A stretch of 64,000 bases of DNA from Psammoneis japonica. Taxonomy: Eukaryota. Below are positions 21,850-64,000 of the stretch, one piece after another. How positions within the stretch are numbered: the first letter of the stretch is position 1; each line of letters opens with the position of its first letter. Made by a program: the position numbers and the translations under genes. Location of the stretch: the NCBI GenBank assembly GCA_008632985.1, contig QPGO01000270.1, forward strand, positions 1-64,000. Direction: 5' to 3'. Under the pieces are notes generated by a model. The model was given only the letters and a program-made list of their open reading frames with translations. It was not told the origin of the DNA and searched no databases.

Positions 21850-22860
21850 GACTTTCGGCCGGGGATGCCAAACGCGATTGTTGTCATCATTGCAAGCACT
21901 GTGAACCCACACCCATTGCAAGTGTGTGTCACTCAAGATCTCAATGGCTCTGCATCCAAAATGCATGGCATCCCAAGCAGCAACCCATTCTTCTCCAGCT
22001 TGACATTCAGAGGGAGCCTTGGCTGCTTGGCCACCATCGCCCACCATGATGTGAGTGGGTCCCCTGGAATTCAACCCATCATTTACAACTGGGTGCATTT
22101 GAAAATGGGTGTGAACATGGCACAAGAGAATGACATTGACAAAGCTTCCAAGTGCTCCTTGGCTTTGAGCAGCTGAACATCTTTGTGGTGAACATGACAA
22201 GCATTGTGCATGGGAACGTGCATGGTCACAAAAAGAGCCACGGCATCAAGGTTCAGTTGACCAACCCAAGTTCCAACACCAGCCACTTGTGTTGATTAGA
22301 TCTGGGATTGAAGTTGGCACAAAAGTTGACGACAACATTGTGAGTTGGTCCACATGGACAAAGAAGCAAAAGGAGTTGCCAAAGTTGCACTCAAGTGGGC
22401 ATGGAATTGAATCCAAGCTCAATGCTGGAAATCAGTGGGGTCTGAAAACTTGCACAGCTTTGTTTCTGGTGCTTTAATCTTGGGCATGTAAAACCTGTTT
22501 TGGGTTGGACTGAATGGGGTTCATGATCCAGACAAGCTGGTTTGTCAAAACAAAAAGGTGCTGCAGCTTACATCCATGAACACATTGCTGTTTCGTCTCA
22601 CTTCAATGTCATGGTTGCCAGCTGCAATCTGCATTGGCGCTCTAAAAATGCCGGGAAAGTCTCCATGGCATCAAACCATTCATCCCAACTTTCTGGCCTT
22701 GACCTTGGACAGGCAATGTCACCAGCAAAAAGAGCTGCACCAGTCTCATCTTGCTGGCCAGATGGAGTCGCCATTGTGTCCTTGCCTCATTGTTGGTGAC
22801 CCAAGTCACCAAGAAATGCCAGTTTGAGAATGCCCTTGATGAGGCATGTTGAATCTGCTC
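21850..22860 (-). pseudogene. Purple acid phosphatase pseudogene (hypermutated)
   Basis: LAFLGDLG, FAGDIAC (GDIAY), WDEWFD, CNFGNSFC, CHVHTH (GHVHAY), GPTHIMVGDGG; stops and frameshifts. Confidence 0.75.
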
Positions 22861-28925: not shown

Positions 28926-30766
28926 TCTTCTGTTTTCTTATATTTCTGTTCTGGAAGACGCCTGCTAGAGAGAGAACGAGTGCTGTAAGTTCAATGTCAA
29001 CGGCGGATGACACAATCATTTTTGTAAGGGTGGACATGCGTGATGTGCAGACGTACTGTGTAGTTGAAGTCGGTAGGGCCTCTAGATAGCCTGGCTTGCC
29101 TCCTGCCTCATCTCCACGCCACGGCTGCAGATCTTGCGGCGGGGCGGGAGGCGGGAGAGGATCGACAACTCCTCTCAGGTGTAAATGACAGACATTCATC
29201 GTGTTGCAGTTGTCATCCCGGTGAAATTTGGTTGGCGTGCAATCCAGGAGGACTTCAGCCGCAGATGCCATGGCAACCACGGGGCCATCCATCACTGCAC
29301 AAAGACAAGCCTCTGCCGCTGACTGCCATGCCAGACATCAGGTGGGTGGGTGTTGCTGACAGCACCGCCCCTCCCTTCAGAAACTTTGAGCAGGGCAGGA
29401 GGAGGACACAAGAGGAGCTACAATCAAGGTCACTCCTGCTGAGCAAGCACACCCAGACTCTTGTCGCCAGCTGATGCAGGCAACACAGCACACCACAGAT
29501 TTTGAGACTCACCCAGCAATGTCATCGCTGCAGCTTGACCACTCTCCCATCACCGCACTGAGCAGTGGTGGCAGCAACCAAGTGCAGCACAGATGACAAA
29601 GTGGCAACAAGAGCCCATGGTGAGAGGTGGGGGAAGGGAGCAGCAGACCAAGTTCAAAGGGAGTTGTCGTGAGCTCAGCCATGTTGCGCACAATGTTGTG
29701 GCCAACCAAGAGATGTTTGTGAAGACTGACAAGGCTGCAGAAGACAACATTGGCAGAGAGCACATCAACGTGGGGGCTTTTGCACCAGACCACCAAATTT
29801 CAAACTTGAGCCACTTGTGCCCCTGACTGATCCATGTGGCAGCACTTCCCAACCAGCTCCATAAAAAAGGTGGAGGTCAGCTGCAAAATGTGTCAAGATT
29901 GTTGCCTTCAAGCAAGGTGCAAGAGTGCAGGCCAAGTGTTTGCTTTGATGCTCAGACAGTGCACTCAACCACCACACAACTGCATGGAAGAACAATTGGA
30001 ACAGGCCAAAATTGATGCCAACATGCCAGTGTCATCAAGTTGCTTGGCCTGCCTGACTTGCAACTGCAGGGTTCAGAAACAAATGTGAAAAAATGTCAGG
30101 CACGCATCACCATTGACACCTGACACTCACTTTTGTTGACAGGGTTGACACTGTCTCCAAAGCACATGAGTTTGTTCTAGAGAATGCCATCAAAACAAAA
30201 AAGCAGTGGCATGCCCAGATCTTGCTTTGTCATTCCATCTGTCTGAAACACTCTGCACTGCTTGATCATCATGCCAGCACTTGGCAAATGCGGCAAAAAG
30301 AGCAGACAAAATGCAAACAACCCAGGACTTGTTGTTGGCGAACTTCATGTTGATTTCATTGCAGTTGGTCTCTGCTGCACTGTGCTGCAGCAGGTTTGCA
30401 AAAGTGACAAAAAACGGTTGAATGCACACAAAAAAAATCATGTGACAGCGCATTCAGTGTGAGAAGATTGCAGCAAAGGCAGACTGCACGTTGTTGTGGG
30501 TTGGGAAGCTGTCCCAATTCAAACAGACCCAAAGACAAAACTCTGGTTTCAATGGATTTTTGGCAATTTTTTCATGTTCATGGCCGGCTAAAAGGAAAAT
30601 GGAAAAATCGTGGTTTTCGTGGCGAAGTTTCACACAGCAAAGATGTGCAGAAGCACAAAAAGCACACATGCCTCATGCGGCCAGAGCAATTTGTTGTACA
30701 AAATTGCACACGAGTGAAGCAGCGGCTGGCGGCCATGATGATGCCATCCGACACACATCGTAAGAC

Positions 30767-33806: not shown

Positions 33807-34112
33807 GACGCGTTCCAGCCCTAGTAGGTGGGAGCTCGTAGTACTGACGTGTGACACAAATAATTTTTATCATCCGTCGTATGTTTCGCACGTACATTTC
33901 TACGTGTGACATTATAAAAAAATTGTCCAGACTCGCTGTTTTGCGAAGCCCCAGACGTTTTATATAAACAAATTTATAGAAACAAATGTGCACCAGTTAC
34001 ATTCTTAAATGTCTGAAGAATGTTGTTACCGTGTAATTTTAATACAGAGCTTGCACGTAGAATTCTACGGGCCCAATGTCACACGGATTCCCACCTGCGT
34101 CTGGAACGCGTC
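33807..34112 (+). mobile_element. MITE, internally deleted, least mutated copy, no TSD
   Basis: Perfect TIRs GACGCGTTCCAG...CTGGAACGCGTC; flanks CATC/GGTG do not match. Confidence 0.9.
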
Positions 34113-35025
34113 GGTGACAATTGTTGCAATCTGCCACTCTTGGGAAGAGCAGTGCTGCCGGCAGAATTGCAGGCACCGGGAACAAGCAAGACCACGTTGC
34201 CATGAGTCATCAATCCACCTCTCGCAGGAAGAGCTGCATTGCTGGCAAGTGCCGCCAGGAATGAGTGTGATGTGCAACCGCACTGCTGCGAGCAGGTGGG
34301 CAGGAGCACGCAGCAGTTGGGTGGGTGGCATGATTTTTTTGGTGCGTGTCAAAGACTTGTGCACTCCAAATTCTTGACACCACTTGTTCCCATTTCCAGC
34401 ACTGATCTTTCTGCTTGCTGCATGTTTTCCAGGGTTTGCACCATTTTGCACAGGTTGATGTGGAGCGCACTTGCTCTGCTGGTGGAGTGAATGGATGGGG
34501 AAAGTGAGCTCTGCTTGATTTGCATGCACCCCACCAAAGGTGGTGTTGGAGCAGACAGACAGGTGCATTAGAGAAGGTGGCACATCAGTGCCAGGCAGAA
34601 GGGGAAATGCTGTTGATCAATGTGCACTCTGCTTTTTCACTCCAACCATGTGCGCTCCCTTTGCAACGGGGAACCCGTCAACATGTTCACTCATCGGGGT
34701 CTTGCACACAGAATGTGGCACTCTGAATGTTCAAGTTTTTTGGTCGAACCCGATGCCTTGAAGGCATTGACAGCATGAAGCAAATTCTGTGCCATTCTGG
34801 CCCATGCAGCCACAAACCCAAACAATGCCCTGGTGTCCTGCTGTTTGCGGTTGACATGCCCCAAGTCTCTCACAGAGGCATGTGTTCTTCAAGCCAGCCA
34901 GAAGGTCAAGAGTCACATCATCAACACACAGCCCTGCACACCCAATGCTTTGACAGTGCAAGGGGGGTTTAATCTGGCAATTAACATGGTGTTTGCCAAC
35001 AAGCTCCTGCTCTTTCTTGCCTCCA

Positions 35026-35297
35026 GACGCGTTCCAGCCCTGGGTGGGAGCTCGTAGCACTGACGTGTGACACAAATAATTTTTGTCATCCATCGTGTGA
35101 ATGTCTGAAGAGGCAACTGGCCAAGTAAAAAATGATGTGCTTCAATCATGTGCGAGTTTGTGCGTTCGCAAAATTGCCTCATTTTCTGTTGGCGAACATT
35201 GACACTTAAATTGCCGTGTGATTTTACTGCGGAGCTCGCACGTAGAATTCTGCGGGCTCAATGTCACATGGATTCCCACCTGCGTCTGGAACGCGTC
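35026..35297 (+). mobile_element. MITE, internally deleted
   Basis: Perfect 12-bp TIRs; TSD TCCA. Confidence 0.92.
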
Positions 35298-37046
35298 TCC
35301 AGTGCCATGCAGTTCTTTTGCCAAAAAAGACACTTGTTGTTGTGCTCAAATGACCAATCCCATCTTGTTGCAGCGCTGCCAAACTCAACGCACGAGGCAG
35401 CCAAAACACATCATTTTGGCACAGAGAACATTGTCCAGCTTGAAAGCTTGTGTGCTGAGCTGGTTGGGACAAACTAAATGCACAACCCACAGATGCTGCT
35501 GGCTGATGCAAGAACCACTGTCAAATGCTGTGCTCCCAGAGTTTTGGTTGAGGAATGGTCTGCTGGCAAATGGGTGGAGAAACAATGATGATGACAAACA
35601 ATGCAGCATTTTGACTTCCATGAGTGCAGACACATGTGTTTTGTGATCAGCACCTTCTCTGTCTCCAGACAACAGAAGAAAGCTCACAAACACAGAGCAA
35701 ACCACAGACGCAAACAAAAAGGGAATCCTGTGTAAAATGCCATGAGATTGGCCATGAGAGCCCAGCATGGGCAATTGTTTCCCGAGAAAGGTGTGCAAGT
35801 TTTGCCAACTCATGCTGTTTGTCTGAGTTGCATCTGGAACTGTTCAATTCCAGATTGGGGCAATCCACCAGAGCTGTGTTTGTCCACTCTAGAGCTGGTG
35901 CAACCTGCCCCCGCATGCAGAGTTCTGCCAACAAGTCGCTGCGCAGCAGTGTGTGGTTGTTTTTGACAACTTCTCTCTTGACTTCATGACTGCATGAGCA
36001 GCTCCAATCAACAATGTGGAGCAGTTGTTGTGTGTTTTGAGATGGAAATGACAGCATGCTGTGCCGCTCTTTTTCTGAAATGGACCTGCCACAGTGAAAG
36101 AATTTTTCAGGTGTTTTCGTGCATCGCAGAAAGCCACGCACAAGGACCCCCAGACATGGAAGAAACCTCACAGAGCAGCTTGGATGTGGTGGATTGAGCA
36201 GCATTGTTTGCAAGCTGAGAGATTTTAGACCAGGTGGTCTGAGCAGACTGAGAAGTGGGTGCAAAAGCTCTCCACTTGAAAGTTCTCACTGAAGACACCC
36301 CACATGGAGTCTGTCACGCTTGCATTGGACAAAAGAGAAACAACACATGCAGACTCAACAAAATGTCATGGTTCAATGGCATCCTTTTTGTGCTCATTGG
36401 TCTGAAATTGCTGCTGCTGTGGGCGCCCATGCTGTTTCTGCAATGCTTCGTTGTCGCTCCGCAACAACACATCGCAACACTTGCCCCCCAATCTAGCACT
36501 GTTTAATTCCAAATTTGTTCCAATGCAGAACTGTGGACTTCCAGATTGTCCCAGTCTAGAACCACACAACAATTCTGGATTATCCCAATCTTGAACAATT
36601 TTGGAATTGTGTTGGTCCAATCTAGAATTGCGCACACCACGTTCTGCCTTGCAGAATAAAGAGACAAATTATGCATGACCAAACCTGTCCATTGTGACCA
36701 CTGAAATACTCTATGAAGAGTCATTTGTTAGAAAAAAGACTTTTTCAGGTCATTTCGTGGATGTTACTGGAAATGTATTACAGTACGATCGTGTCTATTG
36801 CCCACGACAGGAAATGACAGTTTGGGGCTTTCGCGCGCGTTGGTTCACAATTTTTCGACTTTCAACTGATGCTTTGGACATTTCTGGACGATGATATTCC
36901 CGCAAATCATACCGTATGAATAGTCCTGTGCACGACCCAACGCCTCACTCCCCCGCAAAAAAAAAAAAAAAACATCACTCTCTTGACTTCCTCACAATTT
37001 GCCGTTTGGGATAAAGTGAACGCTCCCCCATCCCTCCCTCTTGAAT

Positions 37047-46941: not shown

Positions 46942-48337
46942 ATGAAAGGCAAGAAGGCTATCCTCGAGCTTTTGCTCATTCTCGTGGCTGCGTCCATCCA
47001 GGATGCCGGCGGTGAGTGAGAAGACGATTGCTGAGAATCCTCTTTCGACGCGACTACTTGCGAACCCCTTCCAACTACATGATGATTGGGAGATCAGAGA
47101 TGAAGACTTTTGTATGCTTACTCGTGTCTTTTTCTTTCCAATGCATCTGCAGGCCAGGTGCTTGCCCCGAAATCATTTCTCGAGGGTCCAGTCCATCACA
47201 GTCTCCGAGGCGAGGTAAGCCCGTGGATGGCTTGAACCAGGTCTGGCTGACACGAACACCCGATTGATTGCTGTTTTCGTTTCGTCCTTGCATCCCAAGA
47301 CGACGAATATTGACGACAACAAGGAGGAACACCGCTCCTTGGCTGTACCCCCTGGCACTGTGTACAGCTTTACCTTGGTCAATGCCGACACCAATACCGA
47401 CATTGGTCCACTGGAAGACGGTGACATTATCAACTTGGCCGAAGTAGGCACGAAACTCAACGTCCGTGCCAATGTGGACACCACTTTAGGTATTGATGGC
47501 GGCTCTGTGGAGTTTGATCTGAACGGCATTCTTCGCATTGAAAATATGAAGCCCTACGCTCTCTTTGGCGACGACCATGGAAATTACCACCCGGGAACCT
47601 TTCCTCTCGGTGAGAGCAACTTGAAGGCAACGTACTTTGCATTTGACGATGCCATGGGCGGCTCTGGAAGTACGTTGGAAATTTCCCTTTCCACTATTCA
47701 GGGAGCCAAGTGCAACGCCGAAATCATCGATTTTACCACGACAGGAGGCGGCGCCCCCCTTCCAGCAGGCACATACGTGAATGCGGACTGGGCTGCGCAA
47801 GGCTTAAAAGAGGTGTACGCATCCCTATCTCCAGGTAGTGGATTTGGGCCCCCAGTGCCAAGTTCACCGCCTCCGCCTCAGTACCCTCATGGTGCACCGC
47901 GCATCCTTGACACCAGATTCCCTGGAGCCAATCCTGACCTGGGCAGTCCTAACGCGGCCTTTGGCGGTCCCGGTGTTGGATTGGGCGGAGCAGGGCCCGG
48001 ACCAGGTGAAAATCGCTTTTCTCAAGGCAACGTGCTCATCGTTCAAGAAGCGCCCGGGGTCGACAATAGTGCTTCATCTCCATTTTTTGTCTTTGTCTTT
48101 GACAAGCCAGTCAAGTTACACTCCATTGTTCTCATGGGCGGCGGAGACCGCCGAGGGCCGCAGATCGTTATCCGTAAAACTTTTCCTGGGCATGCTCCAC
48201 AGGTTTTGGAATACGGTCACGGTTATGGCGACAATTCTGTGGACCCTCTTGATTTTGGAGATGGAGTCCAGGTCCAAGAGCTCAACATTATTTTCCCTGA
48301 CCCTGGCGCCGTGTCGAAACTCGTTTACTGCCGTTAG
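46942..48337 (+). CDS. Secreted two-module protein; introns 47012-47152 and 47215-47299
   Basis: Signal peptide; in-frame GT-AG splicing; module SFTLVNADTN..I...GSVEF.LNG..RIEN..PYALFGD; module NPDLGSPN..FGGPGVG.GG...GNVLIVQE. Confidence 0.8.
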
Positions 48338-49048
48338 GGCGAATGAGTGGACGAAGAACCGAAGGCGACATTTAGCTTACGCATCATGAGAATCGTTGTC
48401 GAGAAAATACTATGCCATTGAAAAAAAAGAAAAATTAGCTAGTCAAGTAGTCTTCGGTAAGAATGGTAGAACAAAAGAACCGTAAGTTTCAAAGAATATG
48501 TTCGAGACTCGATCAGAGACCGACTGAATGGTGCTTGGCAAGCGTGGACGATCGAAAGGCATCCGATTGCTTGTCACAGCCATGGGAAATGGTAGTCGAT
48601 ATGCCAACCTTTATTGAAATAGCTGCGGTACTCTTGCGAGATGGTGTTCTCCCGCATCACCAGCACTTGCATAGTTATTATAGGCTGGATACTCAGCACT
48701 CCCATCAACACTTTCACGTTCATCCAGCCTAGTGTGGGGAATTTCTTTTGTGTAATATCAGTGTATAAGTACAAGCTTAGCACACTGACCTTGGTAGTTT
48801 GCCCGCCTTGACAGATTGATTCACAACCAAGACAGTGCATCTCAAGCTGCCTCTCTTTTAAAAAGCCTTGTCTTGATTTATTTGGTGTGGGAAAGTATCG
48901 TACCACTGGAAGGAGAAAGCCAATTCAAGTGTACATTTGTTTGTTCCACAGAAACTTGCGTACAGTTTATGATGATCAAATGTTACATAAGGCATGAATT
49001 TATACAATATATGCAAAGAATGCAGTCAATCCTGATCGGATGATATTC

Positions 49049-50335
49049 CTATTCTGTCTTTTTCTTCTTTGCTGCCGAGGCCTCAGCTCCGGCAGCCATT
49101 GCAGCTTTCGCCGATAACTTCTTCTTTTTTCGCTTCGACACTGGCACAAGACAAGGGTTGTTGAGTAAGTCGGGACGAACCATGGTCGGATTTCGGCGCA
49201 GCAGCTCAAAGGAATTGTTGAGATTGTTCAAGCTCCGGTAGTTGATAGAAGTCTTGTAAGACTACCTCGCAAATTCATGTCGTCTCTATACCAGCTATAA
49301 GTGACTCCTGCTGTGTCAAGAAATGGAGGAAACCTCTCTTTTGCCTCAAACGATTCCAGGACTTGCGGGTTTGAATGAACCAAATCGCGGATAACGGGTT
49401 CCCATTGAAAACCCAGACGCAGGGCCGAAAAGATTGGGTTTGAGCCTTTTGTTATCGTCTTGTTCAACATATTTTTCGGGCAGTACTGCATGAAGGTTTT
49501 CCACTTTGTCTCAAGATCCTCGCACTCTGTCAGACAATATAAAACGCAGCAAGTCACAGAATTTGTGTCACACAATTTTTCGTGGTCATATGGTACGTTC
49601 CAATACCTCCCTCCCTTTCTCTTCTTCTGTAGACATTTCGCCATAACTTTGAGATAACGGTAGAACAGCATGAATCTCTCGTGATTCAGGTTTTTGAACG
49701 AAATATATACAAGCGGTTCAGCATCATTCTCTTCTTCGTCGTCGTCGTCTTCGAAAAAGCTTTCCGTAAATATAGAATCTAGCTCTTCATCCTCCCGCAC
49801 ACGCTTGAGCGCATACATGAGAACTTTTGCCGGAAGGGGCTGTTCGCCAGAGAAATTTTGTGCGACTACCCGCTCCACGGCTGGTGGGCACGCATTAAGT
49901 GTTGTCTTGATTTGCTCACTTTCTGGATGGGCATTCTCAATAAAAAAATTGATTAGAGAATCAGCATGTCCGTCGCATGGCTCGAGTGCCATCTTCCAAT
50001 CCCGGTCTGCTCTGACACGAAGCATCATCTCCAAAATACGCGGCGAAATTTTTGCCGGTTCAGGGTGCATTGACATCATCCAATGAAATGCACTCCAACC
50101 ATGATCAGCTTCTCGGAAATCCAGTGCATCTGGATTCAGCTCCAGCAGCCGCCAGACAACATTTGCAGGCACACCCGGATGGAGGATTGCGCAATGGAGA
50201 GGATGTGCTCCACTCAATGCACAATCTTCCATGGTGCCAGCTGCGTCAAAGTCATCCGTCAATGCCATTTCCGGCACTCGATTTAAGTCTTGCAAGAACT
50301 CTTTCCAGTGGATGTTGACTTGATGGAAAGGTTCT
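49049..50335 (-). pseudogene. 3' part of a host gene (ankyrin-like / LRRNP-type C-terminus) split by Copia element 2
   Basis: HPLHCAI, GWSAFHW, NNSFELLRRNP; reading frame continues across the TSD into 58553+; frameshift near 49270. Confidence 0.75.
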
Positions 50336-50806
50336 GGTCGAAGCTCGCGTGTCCGCGCAAGCTCCGAGTGCCTTCCAACGTGTCGACTGGATGTCCACTC
50401 CAGATCGACACCTCAGGCAGAATGCAAGCAGATGGAGTCTGCTGACGAGCAGCAGTGGGCATTTGGTCTTTCACAAAAGTGCTGCTGACCAAATTGTGAG
50501 CTGCCTGGACTGAATCTGCTGAATGCACCCAAACAGAGGTTGATCCGCAGGCTTGTGCTAGAGACCAGCACAAACCTCAGGGTCAACCACATTCACAGCA
50601 ATCATCCAAACACTGCCGAACCGATCTGTGGTTGGTCCAACATCTGTGCAAAGCCTGTGATCTCCAAAGCACCGCCTGTGATCCCCAAAGCACTCGGCTT
50701 GAGAATCAAGTCGACGTGGCGCGAAAAGAATTTTGACAAGAATTCCGACTGATGGAAGCACAGACACAACAGAGAATCTGGGTCGGTGGACAGATGAACC
50801 ACGACT
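50336..50806 (-). repeat. 3' LTR of Copia element 2
   Basis: Direct repeat of 58076-58547. Confidence 0.93.
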
Positions 50807-53731
50807 CTCCCTCTCATTCACAGATTCCAGCAACCAACAAGAAAATCGCAAACGAGAAAGCTCGCACAATTGGCACAAGTTCAGAGCAAAGCTCCTGCAT
50901 CTTGACCGAGCCACAACACACAACAAATGAAGGAAGCGATGCTTCCAAAGTGCTGCCACCCTTGGACCTTCAACCGGTTGTTCTCGAAGAGCTCTCGGGT
51001 CAAAGGCTTGGTGAGACAATCGGCGAGTTGCTCAGCCGATTCCACCTCAATCGCATCAAACTCATCGCAATGCGACCAGAGCCAACGCCACTTGATGAGA
51101 AAACACTTGGCATGATTGGTGATGCGGTGGTTGGCAGCCAGGCAGCAAGCGCCTTGACTGTCTTCGAACACACGCGCACGAACCAAAGTCCTGAGATCTT
51201 GGGAGATGTCCAAGGTGAAGACGATCTCAAGGAGCAGGTTCTTCAAAGGCAGAAGAGTCCGAAGAGCACAGGAGGCGGCTTGGCACTCAGCTTCGAGGGT
51301 GGAGCAGGAAACAGCCGACTGGAGCTGCGATTTCCACACCAAAGGACATCCACTGAGAGTTGTGATGTGTCCGGTGCGTGACCTCACAGAACTCGGGTCA
51401 GAATCCGCTTCGCAGCAACAGAGACCAGCAAAATCGGCATCAACCCATGAATCAAGATCCAAACAACCGGTTGGAGACAGTGGCATCCCCTGATCACGCG
51501 TCCTCTTCAAGTGGCGGACCAGAGTCTTGACGGCGGTTGCATGCGACTGTTTTGGGTTGGAGTTGAAGTGCACAACCTGACTGACGGCGAGGGAAATGTC
51601 AGGACGGGTGTTGGTGGACAGACACAGGAGCATTCCAATGACCAAGGGACAGCTCCAGTCCTCCTGCATGGGATCTCCGTCTGCATCAGTGCCGAGAGCT
51701 TGGGACACTGCAGGGAGCAAGTTCGGTTTGCTGTCAACCAAGCCGGCAGCTAACAGGATCTTGTCAATCAACCCTTTCTGCGTCAACTTGACAGCACCAT
51801 CGTCTCTCCTTTCGAACTTGACACCCAAGAACTCGGTGAAACTGCCCTCCTTTGTCAATTCAAATCCTTTCTCGCGCAGCTGAAATGTCAACTGATCAAT
51901 GGTGGACTCCTGCGCTGCACTGATCCCACAATCGTTGACATGCAGGCAGACCATGCAATCATGGTGAAGCAGGAGACATTGGTCGCACTCGCTTTGGATG
52001 AAACCCAAGTCCAAGAAGGCTTGCAGACAATGTTCGTGCCACAACTTTGGAGCCGAAGAGAGTCCACAGAGACTCTTGACGAGCTCAAGACAAGTCTTGG
52101 GTCCTTTCGTCGAGCTGAAACCTCGTGGAAGATGAGTCCAAACTGGTTCTTCCGCGGGAAGCACTGCTTGAACGAATGCGGACTGGAAATTGGCGGATGC
52201 CGCATGCCATCCAAGAATGAGACTCAATGCCAAAAACACTCGAACCGTGCTCCAGGCTGCAACCGGTGCATGAGTGTCAAACAGACTTCCTTCCTGCAGA
52301 TCGCCGCGACAACAGCAGCAAGCCTTGTGCTTCTTGATCTCGCCTGAAGGTGATCGCTTGCGACGAAATGCCCAAGTGCCGGGAAGGATCTTGGTTTGAG
52401 CATCAGACACAGGTGCCTCGACCCACGTTCCTTGATGGACAAGTGCTGCAATCTCAATCTTAGCCGCCTTCAACCACTTGACGCGATCGGAAGAGTGCAT
52501 GGCCTCGTCCCACGACAGCGTGTCCGGATCCTTGACTTTGCGCGCCGACGCCTTGTGTGCGGCAGGAGCAGTCATGGACATGTTGCAACCATGGTCAAAC
52601 TTGTGTGCATGATGGAAATCAATGAAGTGGGACAAGCATCCGTGTCCCTGAGATCCATCACATCCAAACCACTGAGGTGCAGCGCGAGTCCGGGTTGAGC
52701 AACGAACTGGGGTTGGAGAGGGGCGTTGTGCGCTGGGTGGAGCCACAGGTGGTGACTCCCTCTCTTGACCGAGATCCGAAGAAAGACTTCGAGGGGTGGG
52801 AGGCTCCCTCTGAGGACTTGGTGGGGCATTTGAGTTGGTGGCGGGTGCTCTCTCCCTCTGAGGCGAGTCTGAAGCCACGGGTTCTCAGTGGGAGACTCCA
52901 ATGGAGGCATGGACTCCACCTCAGGGACCGGGGGTTCCACAACGGGACTCGAGGGGGCTTTGGGAGAAGACACTGGTGCTTGAGCAACCGGAGGAGGGAC
53001 CTGCAAGGGTTTGGGAGGCGACCGGCGGGTGACGGTTTCGCGGATTTCCTCAGATCGGCGCTCACATTCTGGGCATTCTTGATGGATGTCGATGTCAGCC
53101 TGCTCTTCATCATCCATGGCACATTGACACACACTGTCTCTGAAAAGAGACGTCCATTCCAGAGACCCAACGGCAGGTGACGAGCTGGCATCGGCAGGAA
53201 CCATCGCAAACCAACCATCAAAAACGACATGGAATTGTGGAGTGATGGCTCCTGTTTCAAGACTCAAGACTGGCGGGACTGACGAGGCATGCTCGGGGCT
53301 GAGTCCCACACAGACATGCCGACTCGCGTGGGGTTTCCACTTCGGCAGTTTCTTTCCATCGGCGAGTGTTTTGTCAAGAACGCAAACAGGGCACCCCCAA
53401 ACATGACAATCCTGGAACCGAGAGTGAGGATTGCGCGTCTGGGTGAACACATCCTGTGGACTTAGACCCGCAGATGGGTCTGGCATCGCATCACAAAGCA
53501 TGACAGCGTGGTCCACAGCCAAAGGCCAAAGAGTGGCATCCGCAACATCAGGCCAATGGATCGCCGCATGCAACATCATGCTTCTCGCGATCGACATTGT
53601 AGTGTGCATTGCTTGTTCACAAACTCCATTGTGATGGTGAGCTCCTGCACCGGCATGCTTCGAAACTTGAGCAAAAGATTCCAAGTGAACCCTGAAATTG
53701 GCCAACGTGAACGCCTTTCCGTTGTCGCTCA

Positions 53732-54127
53732 GACGCGTTCCAGCCCTGGGTGGGAGCTCGTAGCACTGACGTGTGACACAAACAATTTTTATCATCCGTC
53801 GCATGTTTCGCACACAGATTTCTACGTGTGGCATTTTAAAAAAATTGTCCAGACTCGCTGTTTTGCGAAGCCCCAGACGTTTCATACAATGAATTTATAG
53901 AAACAACAATGCGCCAGCCACATTCTTCAATGTCTGAAGAATGTAACTGGCTAAGTAAAAAATGATGCACTTCAATCATGGGCGAGTTTGTGCGTTCGCA
54001 AAATTGCCTCATTTTCTGTTGGCGATCATTGACATTTTAATTGCCGCGTGATTTTAGTGCAGAGCTCGCACGCAGAATTCTGCGGGCCCAATGTCACACG
54101 GATTCCCACCTGCGTCTGGAACGCGTC
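53732..54127 (+). mobile_element. Full-length MITE (396 bp) inserted in the Copia-2 integrase
   Basis: Perfect TIRs, TSD CTCA; removal restores PQECLSDNGKAF. Confidence 0.95.
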
Positions 54128-57100
54128 CTCAGACATTCTTGGGGAACAACGCCATGATCGTGACAATGGGCCTCAAACACGTTCTTGGCCGTCAAAGTCT
54201 CATGGGCATTGAGGTGAGTTTGATGTTGAACGTTGATGTAACCGGATGCATGATCCACAAAGATTGCTCTGCCCGAGTGCTGATGTTTTGTGCTCTCCTT
54301 TCCAAAAGCATGTTTCAGACAACCACGAGTGGAACAGACAAAATGATCAACCGAAACTCGTTGACCGGGGAACAGTTGGTCCTTCTTCAAGGCACCAGCT
54401 CGATCTTTGACAACACGAGAAGTCTTTCTGGGGCCAGGACGGCGTTTTTGTTTCCCACATTGGCGTGCGGCACAAAGGGGCGGACGATCGACACGACAAG
54501 CGCGTTCATGCAAACGACGGGCACCCTGAGAGTGGGACAGAGCTCCCACACGCATCAAGAATTGCACCTTTTGAAAGCTCAGATGCCCGAGACGAAAGTG
54601 CCAATGCAGTGGCTCCTTTTCGGCAGGTGAGACATTGTGATTGTGTTCCACAATCGTCGACAACGTCAAGTGAAACTCCTCACAAATTCGTTGACTTGCT
54701 TGATTCGCGTAGGCCCATCCAGCCGGTGGGTTAGTTGAAGGTTCAATCAACACTTCAACACCTCGCCTGTGTCCTTGTTTGCGATTCTTGGATCCACTGA
54801 GGATGGCACGGTCCGATGGCAGTTCGATGGACTCATCCGGGTGCATCTGCAAGAGACTGGTCGTGCTCAAGAGACGGGCCTTGGACTTGGGGACGTAGCA
54901 GGCCGGAACCTTCAGAGTCCGAAGCACCCCAGTGACATCAACAAAAGACCAAGCGACGTGTCCAATGCCTGCCACATGGAGGCCCTTTGCGACACCTTGG
55001 AGCCGGACAGCGACAGGTGGTTTCTCGAGGGGCCCGACGAAGTCGTCCTTGCAAGGTGAGACCAATGCGCTTGCGCCTTGGTCCCAAATGACCGGGAAAG
55101 TGTGCTCTTTGACCACTTCCTTTGTCTCCTCAGGACTCGTGAACGCCGCCTTGAGAGTGCCAGCGACAGAAAGTAGAGGTGACGGGACGTCAGCATTGGC
55201 AAGACAAGCCCTGGCTGCTGGGGAGCAGACAGCATCAAGCTGGGAGCGCGTCAAACCGTGCGCAGCGTTCGAACCAACAGGGCGACACGTGGGTGTGTTG
55301 AGGTTCCGACAACCTTGATGACAAATGTTGGGACCCCTTTTTAGAGCAGTGCTCTTGTGACGTCTGGCACCCTTGGGACGAACGGCTTCTCCCTCTCGAC
55401 CGAGGAGAGGACGTGCGCGCGTGAAGGTGAGTGACCGCTCAAAGGCCTTGACCTCCTCACTGAGGTCGTGCAACTGATTGCGCTGCCGCTGCTTAACATC
55501 AGGCGCCCCACGGGCACGTTGGAAGAGAGAGGGATGCCTGGGTGGAGTGCGGCGGCGTCCGTGGCGAGACTGAAGCTCCCGTGCAGGCGACGATGCCCCC
55601 AACGTTCGTGGTGCTTGGAGAACTTGGTTCCTTGGCGTGCAGCCCAGCGGGGAGGAGGGGGTGGAGAAGGAGCATGCAGGGCTTCGGCACGAGCATCACG
55701 CTCAAACTTAGACGGCAAAAATGCAGCCACTAGAAGCAGAAGGAACCAGATGGCGGGCAAAGGATAGAGACGCCAATGTGACGAGACGTGCGACGCAATG
55801 ACCGTCACGAACCAGATCATGGCGTCGACTCCAGCAATCCACCAGTCGGCCGGAAGCTGAGAACACCAACATCCCAAGGTGGCACAGAGCAGCGGAGATG
55901 CAAAGGGGTGGATCAAGGCAAGTGCAACCTGAGACAGTCCAAGCAGTGCATCCTTGAATCCCAACTCAAAGTCGAATTCCGCGTGCCACACCCCAGGATC
56001 CAGGAAGAGGGTGTTGGCCTGCTGAGTCGGCGCAGGAGGTGACTCATCCTTCTGCCCATGCTTGGCAGTGCCGTGAGTGGTTGACCAACGATGGCACTTG
56101 GCACACCAGTGCCAAGTCTTGCCCTGAGCAACCTTGGACTCAGATTGTCCGGGACGAGGCGCGACCTTCTTCCAGTTGCACATGACGCCACCATTGCCAT
56201 TGCCTCCGTTGCCACCTTGACTCCCGTTGCCACCGGAGCGGTTCCTGCCCCTTCCTCCTTGTCCTCCACCATTGTGCCCAGGGTTTGAGCCGCCTTGGTT
56301 GTTTCCAGCACCCTCACTGGACTTGTTGGGACAGTCACGTGCCCAGTGTCCGAGCTTGTCGCAGTTGTTGCACGGAGAGTTTTCCGGAGTCTTCTTGCGG
56401 GGAGCAGCCGTCTGCTGGAAGAGAGCATTGAACTGGGCCTGAGTGAGTGGAACTCCAACCGTTTGACAAGTGGCTGAGGGGTCAAGTGCCAGGTTTCCAA
56501 AGGCTCTGGGAATGGCTTTGGAGTCTGTCGCGTGCTTGACAGGATCCCACTGCGCGTTGTTCTTGAACAAGCAGCAGCGGTCCAGGATCTTTCCAATGAC
56601 TTGAGAGCAAGCAAGGTTCTTGGACGCAAGGTGTCGTTTCGTGTCCGTCTTAGACTTGTGCGCCATCTCAACAAGTGCCTCGCTCAAATTCTCTTTCACA
56701 GTGCGAAGGGCATGCTTGAACTGCTGACCGTTTTTGCCATCCCCGCCAGCTTCCAGGCAAGTGTTGACCAAGGCAAGCGTTGGCTTGTGGTCGCACTGAC
56801 CCACAACATCTAACTCTTGGGCCGTGGTCTTGAACTCGCATGGGAGCTGGGAGAGATCCTGACCGGTGAACTGGGAGGGCTTGAGTTCCTCCAGCTGCTT
56901 TTCGAGCTGCTTGAAGCGTTCGATGGACGTGCTCTGGAGGATCACGACGAGAGCTGTCCAGACTTTCGGAAAGCAATCCGACTCTTCCGTCTCCAGATCC
57001 AGCTGCACGGCCAGGCTAGCCTCCAAGGAGTTCTTAAGAAACTCAGCAGCATCCCTGTCATTGGATGAATCGCAGGAGTCACACTTGGCGAGTTGAGGTG

Positions 57101-58075
57101 CGACAAGATGGGCGACACTCGATTTGGAATGCCGAGGATGTCCTTCAACGCAAGACGTCACAGAAGTTGAGTCCTCGGGGTCCTGCAGGCAAGTTGCCGC
57201 ATCCAAACCGCAGTCCTTGAGATGCTTCATCACCTTCTTCTCAAAGGTTGCAAGATCTCCCTTCTTGTCAAACTTGGTTGAAAGTCCGGCAACGCGGCAG
57301 GCCTTGCTCTTCTGGGCAGAAGAAACATGGTGGGAGCGACACTGGTTTGGTGACATTGGACTGGAGTTGGGAGTTTCCAATCCGGACCAGTCAGCCTTGG
57401 GTTTCCCACCGGTCCAAGCAACTTTCTCAGTGGAACCAATGGAGACAACCCCACCCATCTTAGGAGCCTTGGGTTTGTAGACTTTCGTCTTCGGCATCGC
57501 CACGGTTACCATGGCAGCCACAGCCTGAACGGTGCGGCGCTCGTCTTCCGACATGCGGGAGCCTGCAGTGGGCTCGTCATCATCATCGTCCGAGTCATCA
57601 TCTGAATTGTCCGGGCGAAGTTCCAAGGGCAGAACAGGCTCATCGTCTGGGTCGTTGTGGTCCTGAGGTGGTGGATTATCCCCCGGTGGAGGTTGGTCCT
57701 CAGGAGGCTGATCCTTGAACACTTCGGGGTCGTCAGCCATGTCCGACAGCACGCTTGAAGCTGTCAAGTCAGACCAATCGTCTGGGACATTCTCAATCAA
57801 AGAGTGCGAGCTCGGAGAACTCTCTTGGGTCTCAGGAGGGCCGCTGAGTGGAGTGGGACCTGAGATGGTGCACGTGCAAAATCAACAACAAACCTTCTGG
57901 CGGAACCAGCTGTTCAGCTGATGGAGTCAGTCGCAGTGCTTGACATCAAGAGCACGGAGCGCAGCCAATGAGGAGCGCTGATGGCATCCGAGCCATTGAC
58001 AGGGTTGCTCTGGTTTGGTCATCCCCAACCGGAAGCGCAGAACGTGCCAAGTTACCCTAATTGGGCGAACTGGCC

Positions 58076-58547
58076 AGTCGAAGCTCACGTGTCCGCGCAA
58101 GCTCCGAGTGCCTTCCCAACGCATCGACTGGATGTCCACTCCAGATCGACACCTCAGGCAGAACACAAGCAGATGGAATCCACCAACGAGCAGTGACGAG
58201 TGTTTGGTCTTTCACAAAAGTGCTGCTGACCAAATTACAAGCCACCTGGACTGAATCTGCTGAATGCACCCAAACAGAGGTTGATCCGCAGGCTTGCACT
58301 AGAGACCAGTGCAAACTTCAGGGTTGACCACATTCACAACAATCATCCAAACACTGCTGAACCGATCTGTGGTTGGCCCAACATCTGTGCAAAGCCTGTG
58401 ATCTCCAAAGCACCGCCCATGATCCCCAAAGCATTTGGCTTGAGAATCAAGTTGATGTGGCGCGAAAAGAATTTCGACAAGAATTCCGACTGACAGAAGC
58501 ACAGATGCAACAGAGAATCTGGGTTGGTGGACAGATGAACCACGACT
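58076..58547 (-). repeat. 5' LTR of Copia element 2
   Basis: agtcg...cgact; direct repeat of 50336-50806. Confidence 0.93.
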
Positions 58548-58552
58548 GTTCT

Positions 58553-59039
58553 TGAAACAATTCTCCGAAATGTTCCGCAAAGAGCTCCTCTGGCGACAGA
58601 GACTTGACCCTGCATTTGGGTGCAGAGTGTTTGGACATGTGTTCGCCTTCGTCATCTGTTTCACAATGGACACAATGCATCCACTTTTGCTTTTCCTCCA
58701 CACACTCGAATCGAGCAACTTTTGCCTCGCACAGTCCAGGCATGTTGGTTGCGGGGTCGATGAAACTTTTGGAGATCTTGGCACCAATGGCAGCTTCTGT
58801 TGTGGCAGTGGGTTGTCCTCCTCCAACTCTTCTTTGGTCTTGTCATCAGCACCCACATCATGATTCCTGCTGCTGCTGCTCAAACTTTTTGCTGCCTTGG
58901 CATTCTTCTGTGGAGGAGGCGCCTTTTTTGTTCATGATGACGCTTCTTTGGCAGCTTTCGCATTTTCATCTAAAGGCGGTGGTGGTTGATGTGCTTGTTC
59001 CTCCATCGATCTCTTCAGAGCGACGTGAAGCGAGCTCAT
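58553..59039 (-). pseudogene. 5' part of the split host gene, with a Tudor-like domain
   Basis: IGAKISKSF...LCEAKV...MHCVHCETDDEGE (Tyr replaced by Cys/His); joins as FGELFQE|PFHQVNIHWKEFLQDL. Confidence 0.7.
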
Positions 59040-59206
59040 TGTAGAAGCACTTCAAATCACAAAAAGTGAAGCAAGCAACAAGTGACACAGCTTGTCATCG
59101 CTCATCGCCACAGCAAATGACGGGGCGGCGGGGTGTGGGGTCTTCACGGTGAAAGGTGAAAGGGAAGAGAGAAACTGCGTAAAATCCCTCTCTGCTGGAG
59201 AGAGCA

Positions 59207-62200
59207 GCCAGTGGTCATCCGCACAGATGCCACATTTCAACCAAATGTGGTGTCAATGTGGCACCCCCATCCAAAACACCAGAACAATGCTTCATGTGCT
59301 CCCCAAGTCTTTTTCCGTTGACAGAAAATCATCAAACAACTCAGAGAACAGGGGCACATGCATTGCATGAGGTGTCTTTGATCGGAAGTTGCGTTGGAAG
59401 TCGTCTGAAGTTGACTGAAAAATGGCGTCTCCGAGATGCGCAAATGCGTGCTGGCACCATGAGCGGACAAGAAGCGACCACCGTCGCTGCCTCCGAGAGT
59501 GTCTCCCCCCCCATGCAATCCATTGGTGAACATGGATCAACACCTCAAGCGTCCACTGGAGTGGTTGAAAGAGCTCAAATGGACCCAGCTCCACAACTAA
59601 ATGCTGCTGCTGCTGCTGAGACTCCTGCAAACAATGTTGAAGGCACTCCCGTGCAGCCTCCTCAAGCATCTGACCAAGGGAGCGGCAGAAGCAATGACTC
59701 TGGATCACAGAAACCGCCCCTGACAACACCTCGAACGAAAAGGAAGACAGGTTCGAAAAAGCGAATGAAAATCGGCCGTCAAGCGAAAGTCAAACGAATG
59801 GACCTCTGCCACATTCTCAGTGAGGTGCAATGACAAGCAATGCCTCGCGACGCCCCCAACGGCTTTCTTTTTTTTGGAACTGTCAAGGGCGGAAATTCAA
59901 AAGTAGGTTGGGATGTTGATTTTGACACCCTTCCTGAATTGGATGAAAGAGTTTGTCATGTCACCGCTAACAAGATCACCGTCATGCAGGACTGGGAAGA
60001 GGAAAACCCCATGTCAGAACAGGAACGTAGGAGCCGCTCGAAAGATGGCGACGATGACGAACCCGCGGCAAAGAAATCAAGGAAGACTTTGGCACTTCAA
60101 TCATTGGATGAATTCTGTGAGCTTGAAGATGCAGAAGTTACTCAAAAATCCATCTTTGAAATGAGGCATGGAACCAATCCGCGATGCATTGAAAAGAAGG
60201 TTGCATGGAAGACACACGGTGAGACAGAGTGCGCAACGGAGTCTCCACTCACAGTGCCGGACCCACCTGTTGAATTAAAGGACGTGGACTTTGCCAACAA
60301 GAGCACACAAGAAAATTTCTTTGACCACGTGCTCCCGGATGTCACTGGTCACGGAAAGATTTTGGACAGATGCCTGAGTGACAGGAGAGCAAGCCATCAC
60401 ACTGCATGCCTTCAGCTTGACCGTGCTTTCCATGATCCGGATGCTGAAGATCCAGATTGGATGGCAAAGCAGTGTTGCACAGTGCTCATTGCAGCTGCTT
60501 CTACAATTGAATGCGGAGTTGAAAATCTGTGGAAGTTGGGATCTTCAGAGGGTTGCTCGTTCTACCCCGACTTTGGGCAATGTGTTGACGTGAAAACTTT
60601 CAAGTGTTTCGAAAGCGCAGCTGCATTTTGTTGGGCCGACCCACAATGCTGGTTTCATGACAAACGCGACATGCCATGGGAAGTGTTTCTGCCGGCGCTG
60701 AAAGGATTCAATGACAGGAGACGACAACTCATCAAATCCCTTGTCTTGCCCTGGGTGGGAGCTCACAGTGCTGACGTGTGACACAAACAATTTTTGTCAT
60801 CCGCAGCATGTTTCGCACGCACATTTCCACGTGTGACATCATAAAAAAATTGTCCAGACTCGCTGTTTTGCGAAGCCCCAGATGTTTCATGTGACGAATT
60901 TATAGAAACAACGATGCACCAGTTGCATTCTTGAATGTCTGAAGAATGTAACTGGCCAAGCAAAAAATGATGTGCTTCAATCATGAGCGAGTTTGTGCAT
61001 TCGCAAAATTGCCTCATTTTCTGTTGGCGATCATTGACATTTTAATTGCCGTGTGATTTTACTGTGGAGCTCGCACGCAGAATTCTACGGGCCCAATGTC
61101 ACACGGATTCCCACCTGCGTCTGGAACGCGTCACCCAAGACATCCAAGTTGGGTGGACTCCCGAATTGCACCCATGAGCCCCGCAAGCCTGTGCCTCTTG
61201 GAACGATGTTTCGAAATGGGGCCGAATGCACTGCTGGCATTCTAGTGCACAACGACCTGGTTCAGCTGCCAGAACACCAGCAAATGAAGAAGTGCCACGG
61301 TGAGCAATCCAGTCTGCCTGATGGATCAAACATTCCTGTGCATGTGGCTGAAACACTGCGGCAAGTGGAGCATGCAGGAGTGAAGGAAGGCGGTTGGGTC
61401 GGAGGCGATGCATGGTTTGGCAGTGTTGTGAGTTGCGTCAAGGTGTCAAAACGGTTCAAAGTTCACTCGACCTTCGTTGTGAAGAATGACACTTCTTTCT
61501 TTCCAAAGGCTGCCATCCACAGAGTCATGATGGCACGACACAGCAATCGTTTGGCTGGAAAGTGGGTCACGTTCTTGATGACAATCGCTGGAGTGCAGCT
61601 GATTGCCATGGGTTGCGCATGGAGCAAATCAAGTGTTGCATGTTTTATTTCAACGTGTGGACTAACCTCTCCATCGGACATGCCTCATGTGTCGAACTTC
61701 GAGAATGAGTGTGGAGAAGTGGCATCGAAGGAACTGCCATGCCCAAAACTTTGCGAATTTCTACATGAGCATCTGCCAATCATTGATGAACACAACAAAC
61801 AAAGACAAGACATTCTTGGTCTGGAGAATTCATGGCCAACACGTTGTTGCTGGTTCCGGCTTCTTGTCACCACTGTTGGAATGTCAGTTGTGGATCTTCA
61901 CCGGCTCTATCGGCACCATGACCAAACAACTCATGGGGGAGCCATGACGGCTAGAAAATTCTCAGACATGCTCTGCAAAGGCCTCAAGTGCAGGTCTGAC
62001 CGGGACCGTCTCCCTCGAACTCCACCATCCAAGCCGGCAGCGGGAACACTCAAGCAAACAACCAATGATGCTGGCAATGCAACGAGACCTCCAACAGAGA
62101 AGCAACTTCAGAGCGGGCACAATGTTGGTCAACCGCATCAACAAAATTGTTGGATGTGTCGGAAGTGCAACAAGTGCACCACAACATCATGGTGCTGTGC

Positions 62201-62753
62201 GGAGTGTGACACGCCGCTGTGTCGAAAGAATCGGGGCCAAGGGTTGACCTGCAATGACGAGCACAGGACAAGCAGCGATCCACGCATCCGCTGCCAACCT
62301 GGATGCAAGAAGGGTCAATTTCCTGATGAACTTTAGAGTGATTTGTGGCATGTGACATGACTGCACAACTTGGTGTTTGCCACATGGTGCTGGCCTGATT
62401 CATCAGGACCACAACATAACTTGGCGTTTGCTGCATGGCATCACCAGATTCACTTCCATCTCCCGCAGGGTCAGCCATTGCCATGCATCCTCAACACCAT
62501 CAAGAAAAAACCAGCTGCTGCAGACACACATCATGCACCACTTCCAACAGTTGCAACCCATGACAACAGCGTCTCGCATCTTGCAACTTTCGCCTTTCAG
62601 GCATGGGCCGGTTGGAGTGGTGCAAGTTCTGCATGACCACATCACAAACAAATGTGGCATCTCATGTGGTGTCTTGTAGAATCAATGCCAGGATTGCCGC
62701 AGGCCAGAGATGCCATGCATGGCATCATGGTGTCTGTGCGGATGACCACTGGC
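59207..62753 (+). mobile_element. piggyBac-like DNA transposon, inactivated
   Basis: TIRs gccagtggtcatccgcacaga / tctgtgcggatgaccactggc; flanks AGCA/AGCA; transposase EPRKPVPLGTMF, GGDAWFGS, IDEHNKQRQ and C-terminal Cys-rich domain; premature TGA at 59831. Confidence 0.85.
60748..61132 (+). mobile_element. MITE lacking its left TIR, inside the piggyBac-like transposase
   Basis: Starts gccctgggtggga, ends ctggaacgcgtc. Confidence 0.9.
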
Positions 62754-63193: not shown

Positions 63194-63592
63194 GACGCGT
63201 TCCAGCCCTGGCAGGTGGGAGCTCGTAGTGCTGACGTGTGACACAAATGATTTTTGTCATCCGCAGCATGTTTCGCACGTGCATTTCTGTGTGTGACATT
63301 TTAAAAAAATTGTCCAGACTCGCTGTTTTGCGAAGCCCCAGACGTTTCACACAACAAATTTGTGGAAACAACAATGCACCAGTTGCATTCTTGAATGTCT
63401 GAAGAATGTAACTGGCCAAGCAAAAAATGATGCACTTGAATCATGGGCGAGTTTGTGCGTTCACAAAATTGCCTCATTTTCTGTTGGCGATCATTGACAC
63501 TTTAATTGCCATGTGATTTTGCTGCGGAGCTTGCACATGGAATTCTACGGGCCCAATGTCACACGGATTCCCACCTGCGTCTGGAACGCGTC
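63194..63592 (+). mobile_element. Full-length MITE
   Basis: Perfect TIRs; TSD CATT/CGTT. Confidence 0.92.
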
Positions 63593-64000
63593 CGTTGCTG
63601 TTCAACGCAAGCTCTCAACCTCCCAGCCCTTCCTCCCCCCCTTGACAACTCTCCCTGCCCTTGCAGCCATGCTGTTCTCAATGCTTTGGAGATCATGCCT
63701 CTGCATGCAAGTGCAGCCACAAGCCCAAGCTCTCCAGTGGCATCTGCAACACCATCTTGGTCCTTGCACACACCCTTGGCTCTCTTCCCAAACTTTGTCA
63801 CTCTCCCAATGATGCTCATCTTGAGCTCACAAACCTTCTTCCACATCGGCCCCTCCTTTGCCCGCTGATGTTGGCAGCACCGCCATCCCCCCTCCTGCCT
63901 CCCTTTCTGCTCCCTCCCAGCATCCACACATCACCGTCAATGCAACCTTCCCCAAAGCCCCTCCTCCTGGTCTGCCTGCCCCTCCCACTCCTGTCTCAAC

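Follow-up and report, generated by a model that had tools for sequence, protein, structure and literature searches.

Copia insertion into a single-copy gene of the diatom Psammoneis japonica and probable extension of TpA hypermutation into the adjacent coding sequence

A:T to G:C hypermutation confined to the dinucleotide TpA has been described for integrated giant-virus and virophage DNA in the chlorarachniophyte Bigelowiella natans (Rhizaria; Mettrop et al., bioRxiv 10.64898/2026.01.13.699255). In the sections of that preprint available to us, the de novo rate is given as ~1000-fold over background and the process as active in only some lines; its footprint is a loss of TpA with a gain of CpA and TpG, coding sequences poor in TpA show an enrichment of reverse-transcriptase and DDE domains, the hypermutable viral region was extended (~21 kb) by the authors on the basis of mutation rate, and adenine deamination in DNA, with an ADAT2-like candidate, is put forward as a hypothesis. 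Our full-text literature searches found TpA hypermutation in this preprint only, and none for diatoms. Here we describe a stretch of 64,000 nucleotides from the diatom Psammoneis japonica (positions 1 to 64,000 of contig QPGO01000270.1, assembly GCA_008632985.1; hereafter “the window”), in which a long terminal repeat (LTR) retrotransposon of the Ty1/Copia type, Copia-2, interrupts a single-copy gene of a putatively ankyrin-like family (the “host gene”). Copia-2 split this gene, and we consider it likely that TpA conversion acted in place, both on transposable elements (TEs) and on the unique DNA adjacent to them.

The locus resembles B. natans in that the changes are almost exclusively A:T to G:C at TpA, yield both TpG and CpA, and are local to invading DNA. 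It differs in that TpA in B. natans is partly depleted and mutations were measured de novo, whereas the diatom carries a near-saturated historical footprint, and in its targets, which here are LTR elements, piggyBac-type elements, miniature inverted-repeat transposable elements (MITEs) and a split host gene rather than giant-virus and virophage insertions. No LTR analysis and no damage to flanking host genes is reported in the sections of the preprint consulted. The phenomenon appears to be of a kind described once (2026), extended here to another lineage and to other targets, with the leak into a host gene and the dating by LTRs apparently new.

Fungal RIP (repeat-induced point mutation) is likewise a mutational defence against TEs that makes transitions at one dinucleotide and spills over a few hundred bp with a proximity effect (PMC2973834, in the part consulted); leakage is given there as at least 930 bp in Neurospora, and in Leptosphaeria as affecting genes that have a repeat within 342 bp. 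RIP is triggered by duplication during the sexual cycle. Its substitutions run from C:G to T:A, for the most part CpA to TpA, so that TpA becomes commoner and stop codons arise, whereas here TpA is destroyed, G+C rises and TAA and TAG are lost. We rejected RIP for this locus because the direction is opposite: affected DNA has a TpA observed/expected ratio of 0.01-0.15, and G+C is raised, to 0.54-0.59 in Copia-2 and in another Copia element of the window, Copia-1 (5.9-13 kb). Diatom CpG methylation with deamination of 5-methylcytosine (DNMT5-dependent; PMC9998398, in the part consulted) shares with this locus TpG and CpA as end products and the marking of TE blocks. CpG decay was rejected as the cause of the TpA loss because Copia-2, Copia-1 and the converted tract of the host gene described below keep their CpG (4.0-6.8 per 100 bp).

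ADAR and APOBEC enzymes also leave clustered deaminase-type transitions in retroelements, acting on RNA or reverse-transcription intermediates, on one strand, with the changes fixed before integration. Here, in contrast, conversion is post-integration and strikes both strands, and DNA transposons and unique flanks are affected as well; such editing of retroelement intermediates was rejected because the LTRs carry independent, opposite-strand outcomes. The features on which the argument rests are the following, in window coordinates.

49049-49261, minus strand: C-terminal piece of the host gene in another frame; its open reading frame (ORF), ...NNSFELLRRNP...KKKK, matches homologue C-termini
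49231-50037, minus strand: host gene (ankyrin-like family), distal section of the 3' part, not converted, with 4.2 TpA per 100 bp and 10 Tyr
50038-50335, minus strand: TpA-free tract of the host gene (one site survives), the proposed leak zone, residues 1-99 of the 3' part, adjoining the left LTR
50331-50335: target-site duplication (TSD) GTTCT, left copy, read from the sequence and identical to the right copy
50336-58547, minus strand: Copia-2, Ty1/Copia LTR retrotransposon, from Pfam domains, LTR pair and TSD; TpA-depleted, CpG largely kept
50336-50806, minus strand: 3' LTR of Copia-2 in the element's own orientation, from alignment to 58076-58547
58076-58547, minus strand: 5' LTR of Copia-2 in the element's own orientation, from alignment to 50336-50806
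58548-58552: TSD GTTCT, right copy, read from the sequence; a perfect 5-bp duplication
58549-58842, minus strand: host gene, coding sequence of the 5' part, converted nearly throughout, 0 TpA in 290 bp
58553-59330: interval between Copia-2 and the piggyBac-type element, TpA-poor and not repeated, 3 TpA in 778 bp
59834-60781 and 61038-62336, plus strand: piggyBac-type transposase ORFs, hypermutated, from homology; left end of the element between ~59330 and ~59830

A preliminary description of this region, made from the letters alone, had read Copia-2 as splitting a host gene whose frame rejoins across the TSD, and both points are borne out. The minus-strand ORF ending ...FGELFQE at 58549 and the ORF beginning EPFHQVNIHW... 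at 50334 fuse in frame once Copia-2 and one TSD copy are removed, homologues align without a break over the junction, and the flanks are single copy by contig depth (53.8 on the left; 54.3 on the right, where 58655-59330 lies on a single contig with one differing letter). The interrupted gene has 30 homologues in a library of 1.8 billion proteins (best 4.0e-42, 38% identity). Pfam gives no domain for the host-gene parts; a language-model look-up, taken as a lead only, places the gene near ankyrin-type clusters that are commonest in diatoms. Split by Copia-2, the gene is now a pseudogene. Its outer limits appear provisional, as both the C-terminal piece and the start proposed at 59039 are off-frame, the latter with respect to the homology-supported coding part (58549 to ~58785); the frame changes, near 49262 and upstream of 58843, may be real or assembly errors. 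Adjoining the 3'-end frame change are two differences found in all contigs of two read sets, 49235 (C to T) and 49247 (A to G, which turns TA into TG), for which assembly errors or strain differences are possible.

The interrupting element satisfies the usual description of Ty1/Copia, with an LTR pair (471 and 472 bp), a 5-bp TSD, a gag zinc knuckle and an integrase region upstream of RVT_2. Pfam detects zf-CCHC (1.9e-06, 55344-57881), gag_pre-integrs (5.6e-08, 54097-55695) and RVT_2 (4.3e-26, 50884-52884), which follow one another on the minus strand in the Copia order, and does not detect the integrase core (rve) in Copia-2, the region being converted and carrying a nested MITE. A purine-rich tract can be read just inside the 3' LTR. 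Contig depth over Copia-2 is ~600-1400, against 54 in the flanks, which suggests a copy number of roughly 10-25; in the other genomic copies, 187-286 places differ per transition type against ~20 per transversion type.

Comparison of the two LTRs establishes when, and on which strand, conversion took place. Their alignment of 472 columns contains 46 differences, comprising 45 transitions, no transversions and one indel. Among the transitions, 28 of the 45 form 14 TG/CA doublets (TG in one LTR facing CA in the other; 9 one way, 5 the other way), and the remainder comprise 8 sites with CG against TG or CA, one site with TA against TG or CA, and 8 other transitions. Of the CpG sites, 16 persist in both LTRs and 8 have been altered in one, and from these counts fewer than one double, opposite CpG change is predicted, so that the 14 doublets are not derived from CpG. 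The doublets are former TpA sites at which each LTR was converted independently. As the LTRs of an element are identical at integration and these now carry opposite outcomes, conversion followed insertion. It also struck both strands, giving TG as well as CA products here and, in the 5' part of the host gene, four Tyr to Cys and five Tyr to His replacements. The sole TpA kept in both LTRs stands in a CTAG context. Conversion of TpA in the LTRs is ~95%, against 1.7% for other transitions; as a rough estimate from these figures, the per-site rate at TpA would have been 10^2 to 10^3 times background, in line with the ~1000-fold excess given in the consulted sections of the B. natans preprint. The LTR-like pair of Copia-1 behaves alike, with 18 of 20 differences being transitions and three doublets.

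Beyond the right LTR, hypermutation has clearly reached the 5' part of the host gene. The preliminary description had called this part, trapped between two TEs, almost fully converted, and the interval up to the piggyBac-type element indeed retains only three TpA (58971, 59042 and 59180), where ~32 are expected at 4.2 per 100 bp. At the 10 columns of the 5' part in which homologues possessing this N-terminal domain have Tyr, the window has Cys four times, His five times, Phe once and Tyr never. The three survivors lie nearer the piggyBac side, which would fit two sources better than the piggyBac-type element alone.

To the left of Copia-2, hypermutation very probably reached the 3' part of the gene as well. 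Here a stretch with a single TpA (in TTAA) and no Tyr had been reported beside the LTR, with both returning below ~50040, and the counts agree. Around the left LTR, TpA occurs at 49954, 50037, 50284 and 50559; 50038-50335 contains a single TpA (in TTTAAG) against 11.4 expected from the distal gene part (49044-50037, with 38 TpA; Poisson P = 1.4e-4), and the string DCALSGAHPLHCAILHP occurs in the host ORF translation beside the LTR. The surviving TpA stands in TTAA, which resists conversion more than any other context in the window. Residues 1-99 of the 3' part contain no Tyr, against 10 in the other 269 residues. The TpA deficit of the tract is matched by a gain in TG+CA, from 13.4 per 100 bp in the distal ORF to 20.1 in the tract, with CpG unchanged. 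The left edge is fairly sharp, with one TpA in the first 298 bp and then five in the next 188 bp. Where the tract has the Cys of PLHCAIL, 11 of 22 homologues have Tyr; opposite the His of AHPL, Tyr stands in P0001 and P0013, the two closest homologues. In the distal part, the seven homologue-Tyr columns read Tyr four times, Phe twice and Leu once, and never Cys or His; over both converted tracts, Cys or His stands at 10 of 11 such columns, against none of seven distally (Fisher P = 2.5e-4). The preliminary description had named the same Cys and His residues in the intact allele as the outcome that would count against it; the homologues instead have Tyr where the window has Cys or His.

The empirical probability of the left tract is less extreme than the Poisson value. 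In TpA-normal DNA of the window, 55 of 18,193 segments of 298 bp (0.30%) contain one TpA or none, and we take this figure rather than 1e-4 as the chance expectation because a 320-bp TpA gap exists in another gene (28590-28910). That gap lies in the N-terminal coding part of the ORF 27777-28937 (minus strand), which lies beside a DUF4116 ORF, and TpA-rich DNA follows before the next TpA-poor block. It shows no comparable rise in TG+CA (15.9 against 14.8 per 100 bp), and is a natural effect of composition.

The same contrast runs through the whole window, where mobile DNA has lost ~90% of its TpA, with an excess of TpG and CpA. TpA-normal blocks hold 810 TpA in 19,342 bp (0.0419 per bp), and the remaining DNA 207 in 44,658 bp (0.0046 per bp), a 9-fold lower density; inside Copia-2 it is 0.5 per 100 bp. 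In TpA-poor blocks the observed/expected ratios of TG and CA are 1.4-2.0, and that of AT is 0.7-1.1. The TpA-normal blocks contain Arf, glycosyltransferase, acyltransferase and GNAT genes, and the TpA-poor blocks contain Copia, piggyBac-type and MITE sequences; exceptions to this confinement to TEs are the Copia-2/piggyBac flanks and a phosphatase gene fragment. Since CpG is kept in Copia-1, Copia-2 and to the right of 58 kb, TpA loss is a process separate from CpG decay. The 207 surviving TpA are enriched in YTAR contexts (TTAA 2.9-fold, TTAG 2.9-fold, CTAA 2.4-fold, and CTAG also) and nearly gone from RTAY (ATAT 0.07, GTAT 0, ATAC 0.13), which suggests, from this one window, that the mutator prefers RTAY tetranucleotides. 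In converted DNA, TAA and TAG stop codons fall from 18.4 to 3.1 per kb per strand, with TGA unaffected, and stop-to-stop ORFs of at least 100 residues number 37 per 10 kb, against 20 in normal DNA.

The right-hand neighbour of the split gene had been taken for a transposon, and homology identifies it as one: its ORFs have 174 homologues (best 7.2e-122), many with a precomputed PF13843 annotation, some named transposase IS4 or PiggyBac-derived (Nitzschia inconspicua) and some from Thalassiosira exigua. At nine columns with a Tyr majority, the ORF has Cys five times, His three times and Tyr once; among 120 transposase relatives it is the most extreme, the median relative having no Cys or His at such columns. 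In three of the 120, all unnamed (P0137, P0150 and P0164), Cys or His occupies 3-5 of the 8-11 columns with a Tyr majority and total Tyr is low, and the same process may be at work in their source organisms. Pfam finds nothing in the window's own ORF even at E = 5, presumably due to the conversions, nor does NCBIfam, and a PDB sequence search returned nothing meaningful. Neither the ends of the element nor its TTAA target could be located; when 58553-59900 was compared with the window in a sensitive self-comparison, one 29-bp match was the only result. Its contig depth of 137-200 corresponds to ~2-4 copies.

A family of MITEs of ~400 bp with terminal inverted repeats allows the state of TpA to be compared between positions. 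Its summed contig depth of ~113,000, against 54 in unique DNA, suggests ~2000 copies. Besides those below, copies lie at 24159, 32227 and 45331; the one within Copia-2 has also been delimited as 53838-54254.

33808-34113: MITE in TpA-normal surroundings, with an internal deletion; TpA kept at 15 of 15 sites
35027-35298: MITE in TpA-poor surroundings; TpA kept at 3 of 8 sites
53732-54127, plus strand: MITE nested in Copia-2, half converted; TpA kept at 10 of 21 sites
60748-61132, plus strand: MITE splitting the piggyBac ORF, mostly converted; TpA kept at 5 of 21 sites
63194-63593: MITE in TpA-poor surroundings; TpA kept at 3 of 21 sites

Lost TpA sites in the converted copies read TG or CA, the outcome varying by copy, and the direction of change thus appears to be from TA to TG or CA, in a manner that depends on position. 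The presence of a half-converted MITE within a near-fully converted Copia-2 implies that the process continued, or recurred, after the MITE had landed.

Several side observations concern the remainder of the window. The TpA-poor blocks fall into two classes: those at 13-16, 21-26, 29-33 and 39.6-46 kb are also CpG-depleted (observed/expected 0.08-0.35), and Copia-1, Copia-2 and 58-64 kb retain CpG (0.5-0.9), a division that may reflect age or methylation state. In one block depleted of both TpA and CpG, a Metallophos_C fragment (1.2e-07; 21814-22295, minus strand) derives from a purple acid phosphatase of host type; its metal-binding region reads HVHTHF and further positions resemble Tyr to His or Cys replacements, and the fragment could be either another victim outside the transposons or a pseudogene that arose by duplication. 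A tandem repeat at 1234-1810 (~200-bp unit, 84-89% identity) has a TpA observed/expected ratio of 0.84, an example of a repeat that has stayed unconverted. Among named proteins, those closest to a host glycosyltransferase of the window belong to Seminavis robusta (51%) and Nitzschia inconspicua (43%), and the database contains no near-identical one; like the transposase relatives and the ankyrin-type clusters, these matches point to a diatom.

In the explanation that we favour, a Copia element landed within the coding sequence of a single-copy gene from an ankyrin-like family. Once it had integrated, a process at the level of DNA converted TpA to TpG or CpA (A:T to G:C, on either strand) in Copia-2, in the neighbouring piggyBac-type transposon, in MITEs and in the unique DNA beside them, reaching ~300 bp into the 3' half of the gene and across essentially all of the ~0.8-kb 5' half enclosed by two transposons. 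In protein terms, Tyr codons (TAY) have become Cys or His, and TAA and TAG stops have been lost. The target would be a domain that is silenced and marked by transposons, with its edge a few hundred bp past the element, rather than a sequence motif or the repeat itself. Activity would have been long-lasting or have recurred in episodes, each site changing at some 10^2 to 10^3 times the background rate. The chemistry could be adenine deamination in DNA, as proposed for Bigelowiella natans, or thymine oxidation. Oxidised thymine that mispairs with G would yield the same pattern at a palindromic dinucleotide.

A number of observations weigh against this explanation. The TpA gap at 28590-28910 lies clear of any TpA-poor block. 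Within the left tract, one column passes the Tyr criterion, to which one Tyr of the two closest homologues can be added, and the lack of Tyr in its 99 residues, compared with 10 in the distal 269, does not reach significance alone (P = 0.068). The MITE at 33808-34113 keeps all its TpA (the last at 34066), although the DNA 1 bp beyond it (34114-35024) is TpA-free for ~900 bp; either this copy is a young insertion, or spreading is not universal and the border is sharp. Ancestral states rest on homologues of 23-38% identity in place of an intact allele or a close orthologue: no joint from ~50335 to ~58553, as expected of an uninterrupted allele, was found in the one-sample contigs over 48000-60500, which does not prove its absence (joints of ~7.7 kb at the locus run from one LTR to the other and do not represent an empty site), a word-indexed protein search returned no close orthologue, and none of 213 pattern matches in a metagenome scan with the host protein was confirmed. 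Finally, the contigs derive from one sample, possibly the assembly's own source, and do not amount to independent confirmation of the sequence.

The first of these points could be taken to mean that the left 298-bp tract is TpA-free through composition or chance and that only the 5' part was truly hypermutated, the more so as the tract offers just one or two informative Tyr columns. We judge this improbable to a high degree. Segments this poor in TpA are rare in TpA-normal DNA, and this one begins exactly at the insertion site; TG+CA rises within it as it does not in the control gap, a Tyr conserved in the family reads Cys here and a Tyr of the closest homologues reads His, and the lone surviving TpA occupies the most resistant context. 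A different doubt concerns the source of the leak: the gene may already have lain in a hypermutated domain spreading ~1.1 kb from the piggyBac-type element before Copia-2 arrived. Without Copia-2 the converted host DNA would be a single stretch of ~1075 bp abutting the piggyBac side, and it is common for transposons to nest within previously silenced DNA. That Copia-2 itself was not a source of leakage is nevertheless improbable in our estimation, since TpA survives at 58971, 59042 and 59180, nearer the piggyBac side, and the DNA adjoining Copia-2 is fully converted, the reverse of decay from a single source; Copia-2 itself, moreover, underwent conversion in place once inserted, which implies an active source here. 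Conversion of the left tract could still have come in part from the piggyBac-side domain and not from Copia-2. Two further accounts would place the changes outside genomic DNA. ADAR-like A-to-I editing of TE or read-through transcripts, fixed by reverse transcription, would suit the TpA motif, as ADAR prefers a 5' U (10.64898/2026.01.13.699255, in the sections consulted), yet it is contradicted by the independent, opposite outcomes at 14 LTR sites, by the nearly equal striking of both strands in the 5' part and by the alteration in place of single-copy flanking DNA, and we give it very little credence. Hardly any probability attaches to the idea that modified bases in transposon DNA gave rise to errors of sequencing or base-calling. 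Modified bases can produce systematic miscalls, and the read data examined are possibly the assembly's own; against this, the same ancestral site reads TG in one copy and CA in another, unlike a context-driven miscall, and a short-contig assembly agrees over the flanks except for three letters in one and one letter in the other.

What directs conversion to these blocks is a separate matter. The preliminary description had argued that leakage points to a chromatin-domain or spreading mechanism rather than to sequence-specific recognition; the leakage is real, whereas the conclusion does not follow from it, as homology-triggered RIP leaks too. In fungi, RIP leaks into single-copy flanks with a gradient of proximity (PMC2973834, in the part consulted), and leakage therefore cannot decide between domain and homology. 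The trigger could then be homology between repeated copies, as in RIP, with conversion of the flanks as ordinary short-range leakage, and all heavily converted blocks identified are indeed repeated (Copia at ~10-25, MITE at ~2000 and piggyBac-type at ~2-4 copies). We find such a trigger unlikely, though it deserves consideration: a member of the ~2000-copy MITE family is untouched in TpA-normal DNA (15 of 15 TpA), the tandem repeat at 1234-1810 is hardly depleted, the host-type phosphatase fragment (maybe a duplicated pseudogene) sits in a converted block, and the main hypermutable region of B. natans is single copy according to the consulted sections of the preprint (10.64898/2026.01.13.699255). 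The unconverted MITE leans towards a positional effect, and the young age of the copy would explain it equally well. A chromatin-domain mechanism is thus plausible but not proven.

With its A:T to G:C changes at TpA, a TE-directed mutator of this kind mirrors RIP in fungi. Before the 2026 preprint on one rhizarian alga such a mutator was unreported, and a saturated footprint in a diatom would widen its range to a major phytoplankton group. The present locus constrains how it works, in ways absent from the consulted sections of the preprint: it acts on integrated double-stranded DNA, on both strands, on each LTR independently, on retrotransposons, DNA transposons and MITEs alike and on single-copy host coding DNA within ~300 bp. 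Several practical consequences arise. Loss of TAA and TAG and the resulting long spurious ORFs make converted DNA a hazard for annotation, domain detection fails on converted transposases, and dating by LTR divergence is inflated ~fivefold unless TpA sites are masked. We suggest tentatively, as a conjecture that may well prove wrong, that diatoms share with the chlorarachniophyte B. natans a TpA-specific DNA-editing defence that is old in the stramenopile, alveolate and rhizarian (SAR) lineage and is aimed at silenced chromatin domains whose edges overrun TEs by a few hundred bp. If so, this defence would be a steady source of Tyr-to-Cys, Tyr-to-His and stop-loss mutations in TE-adjacent genes.

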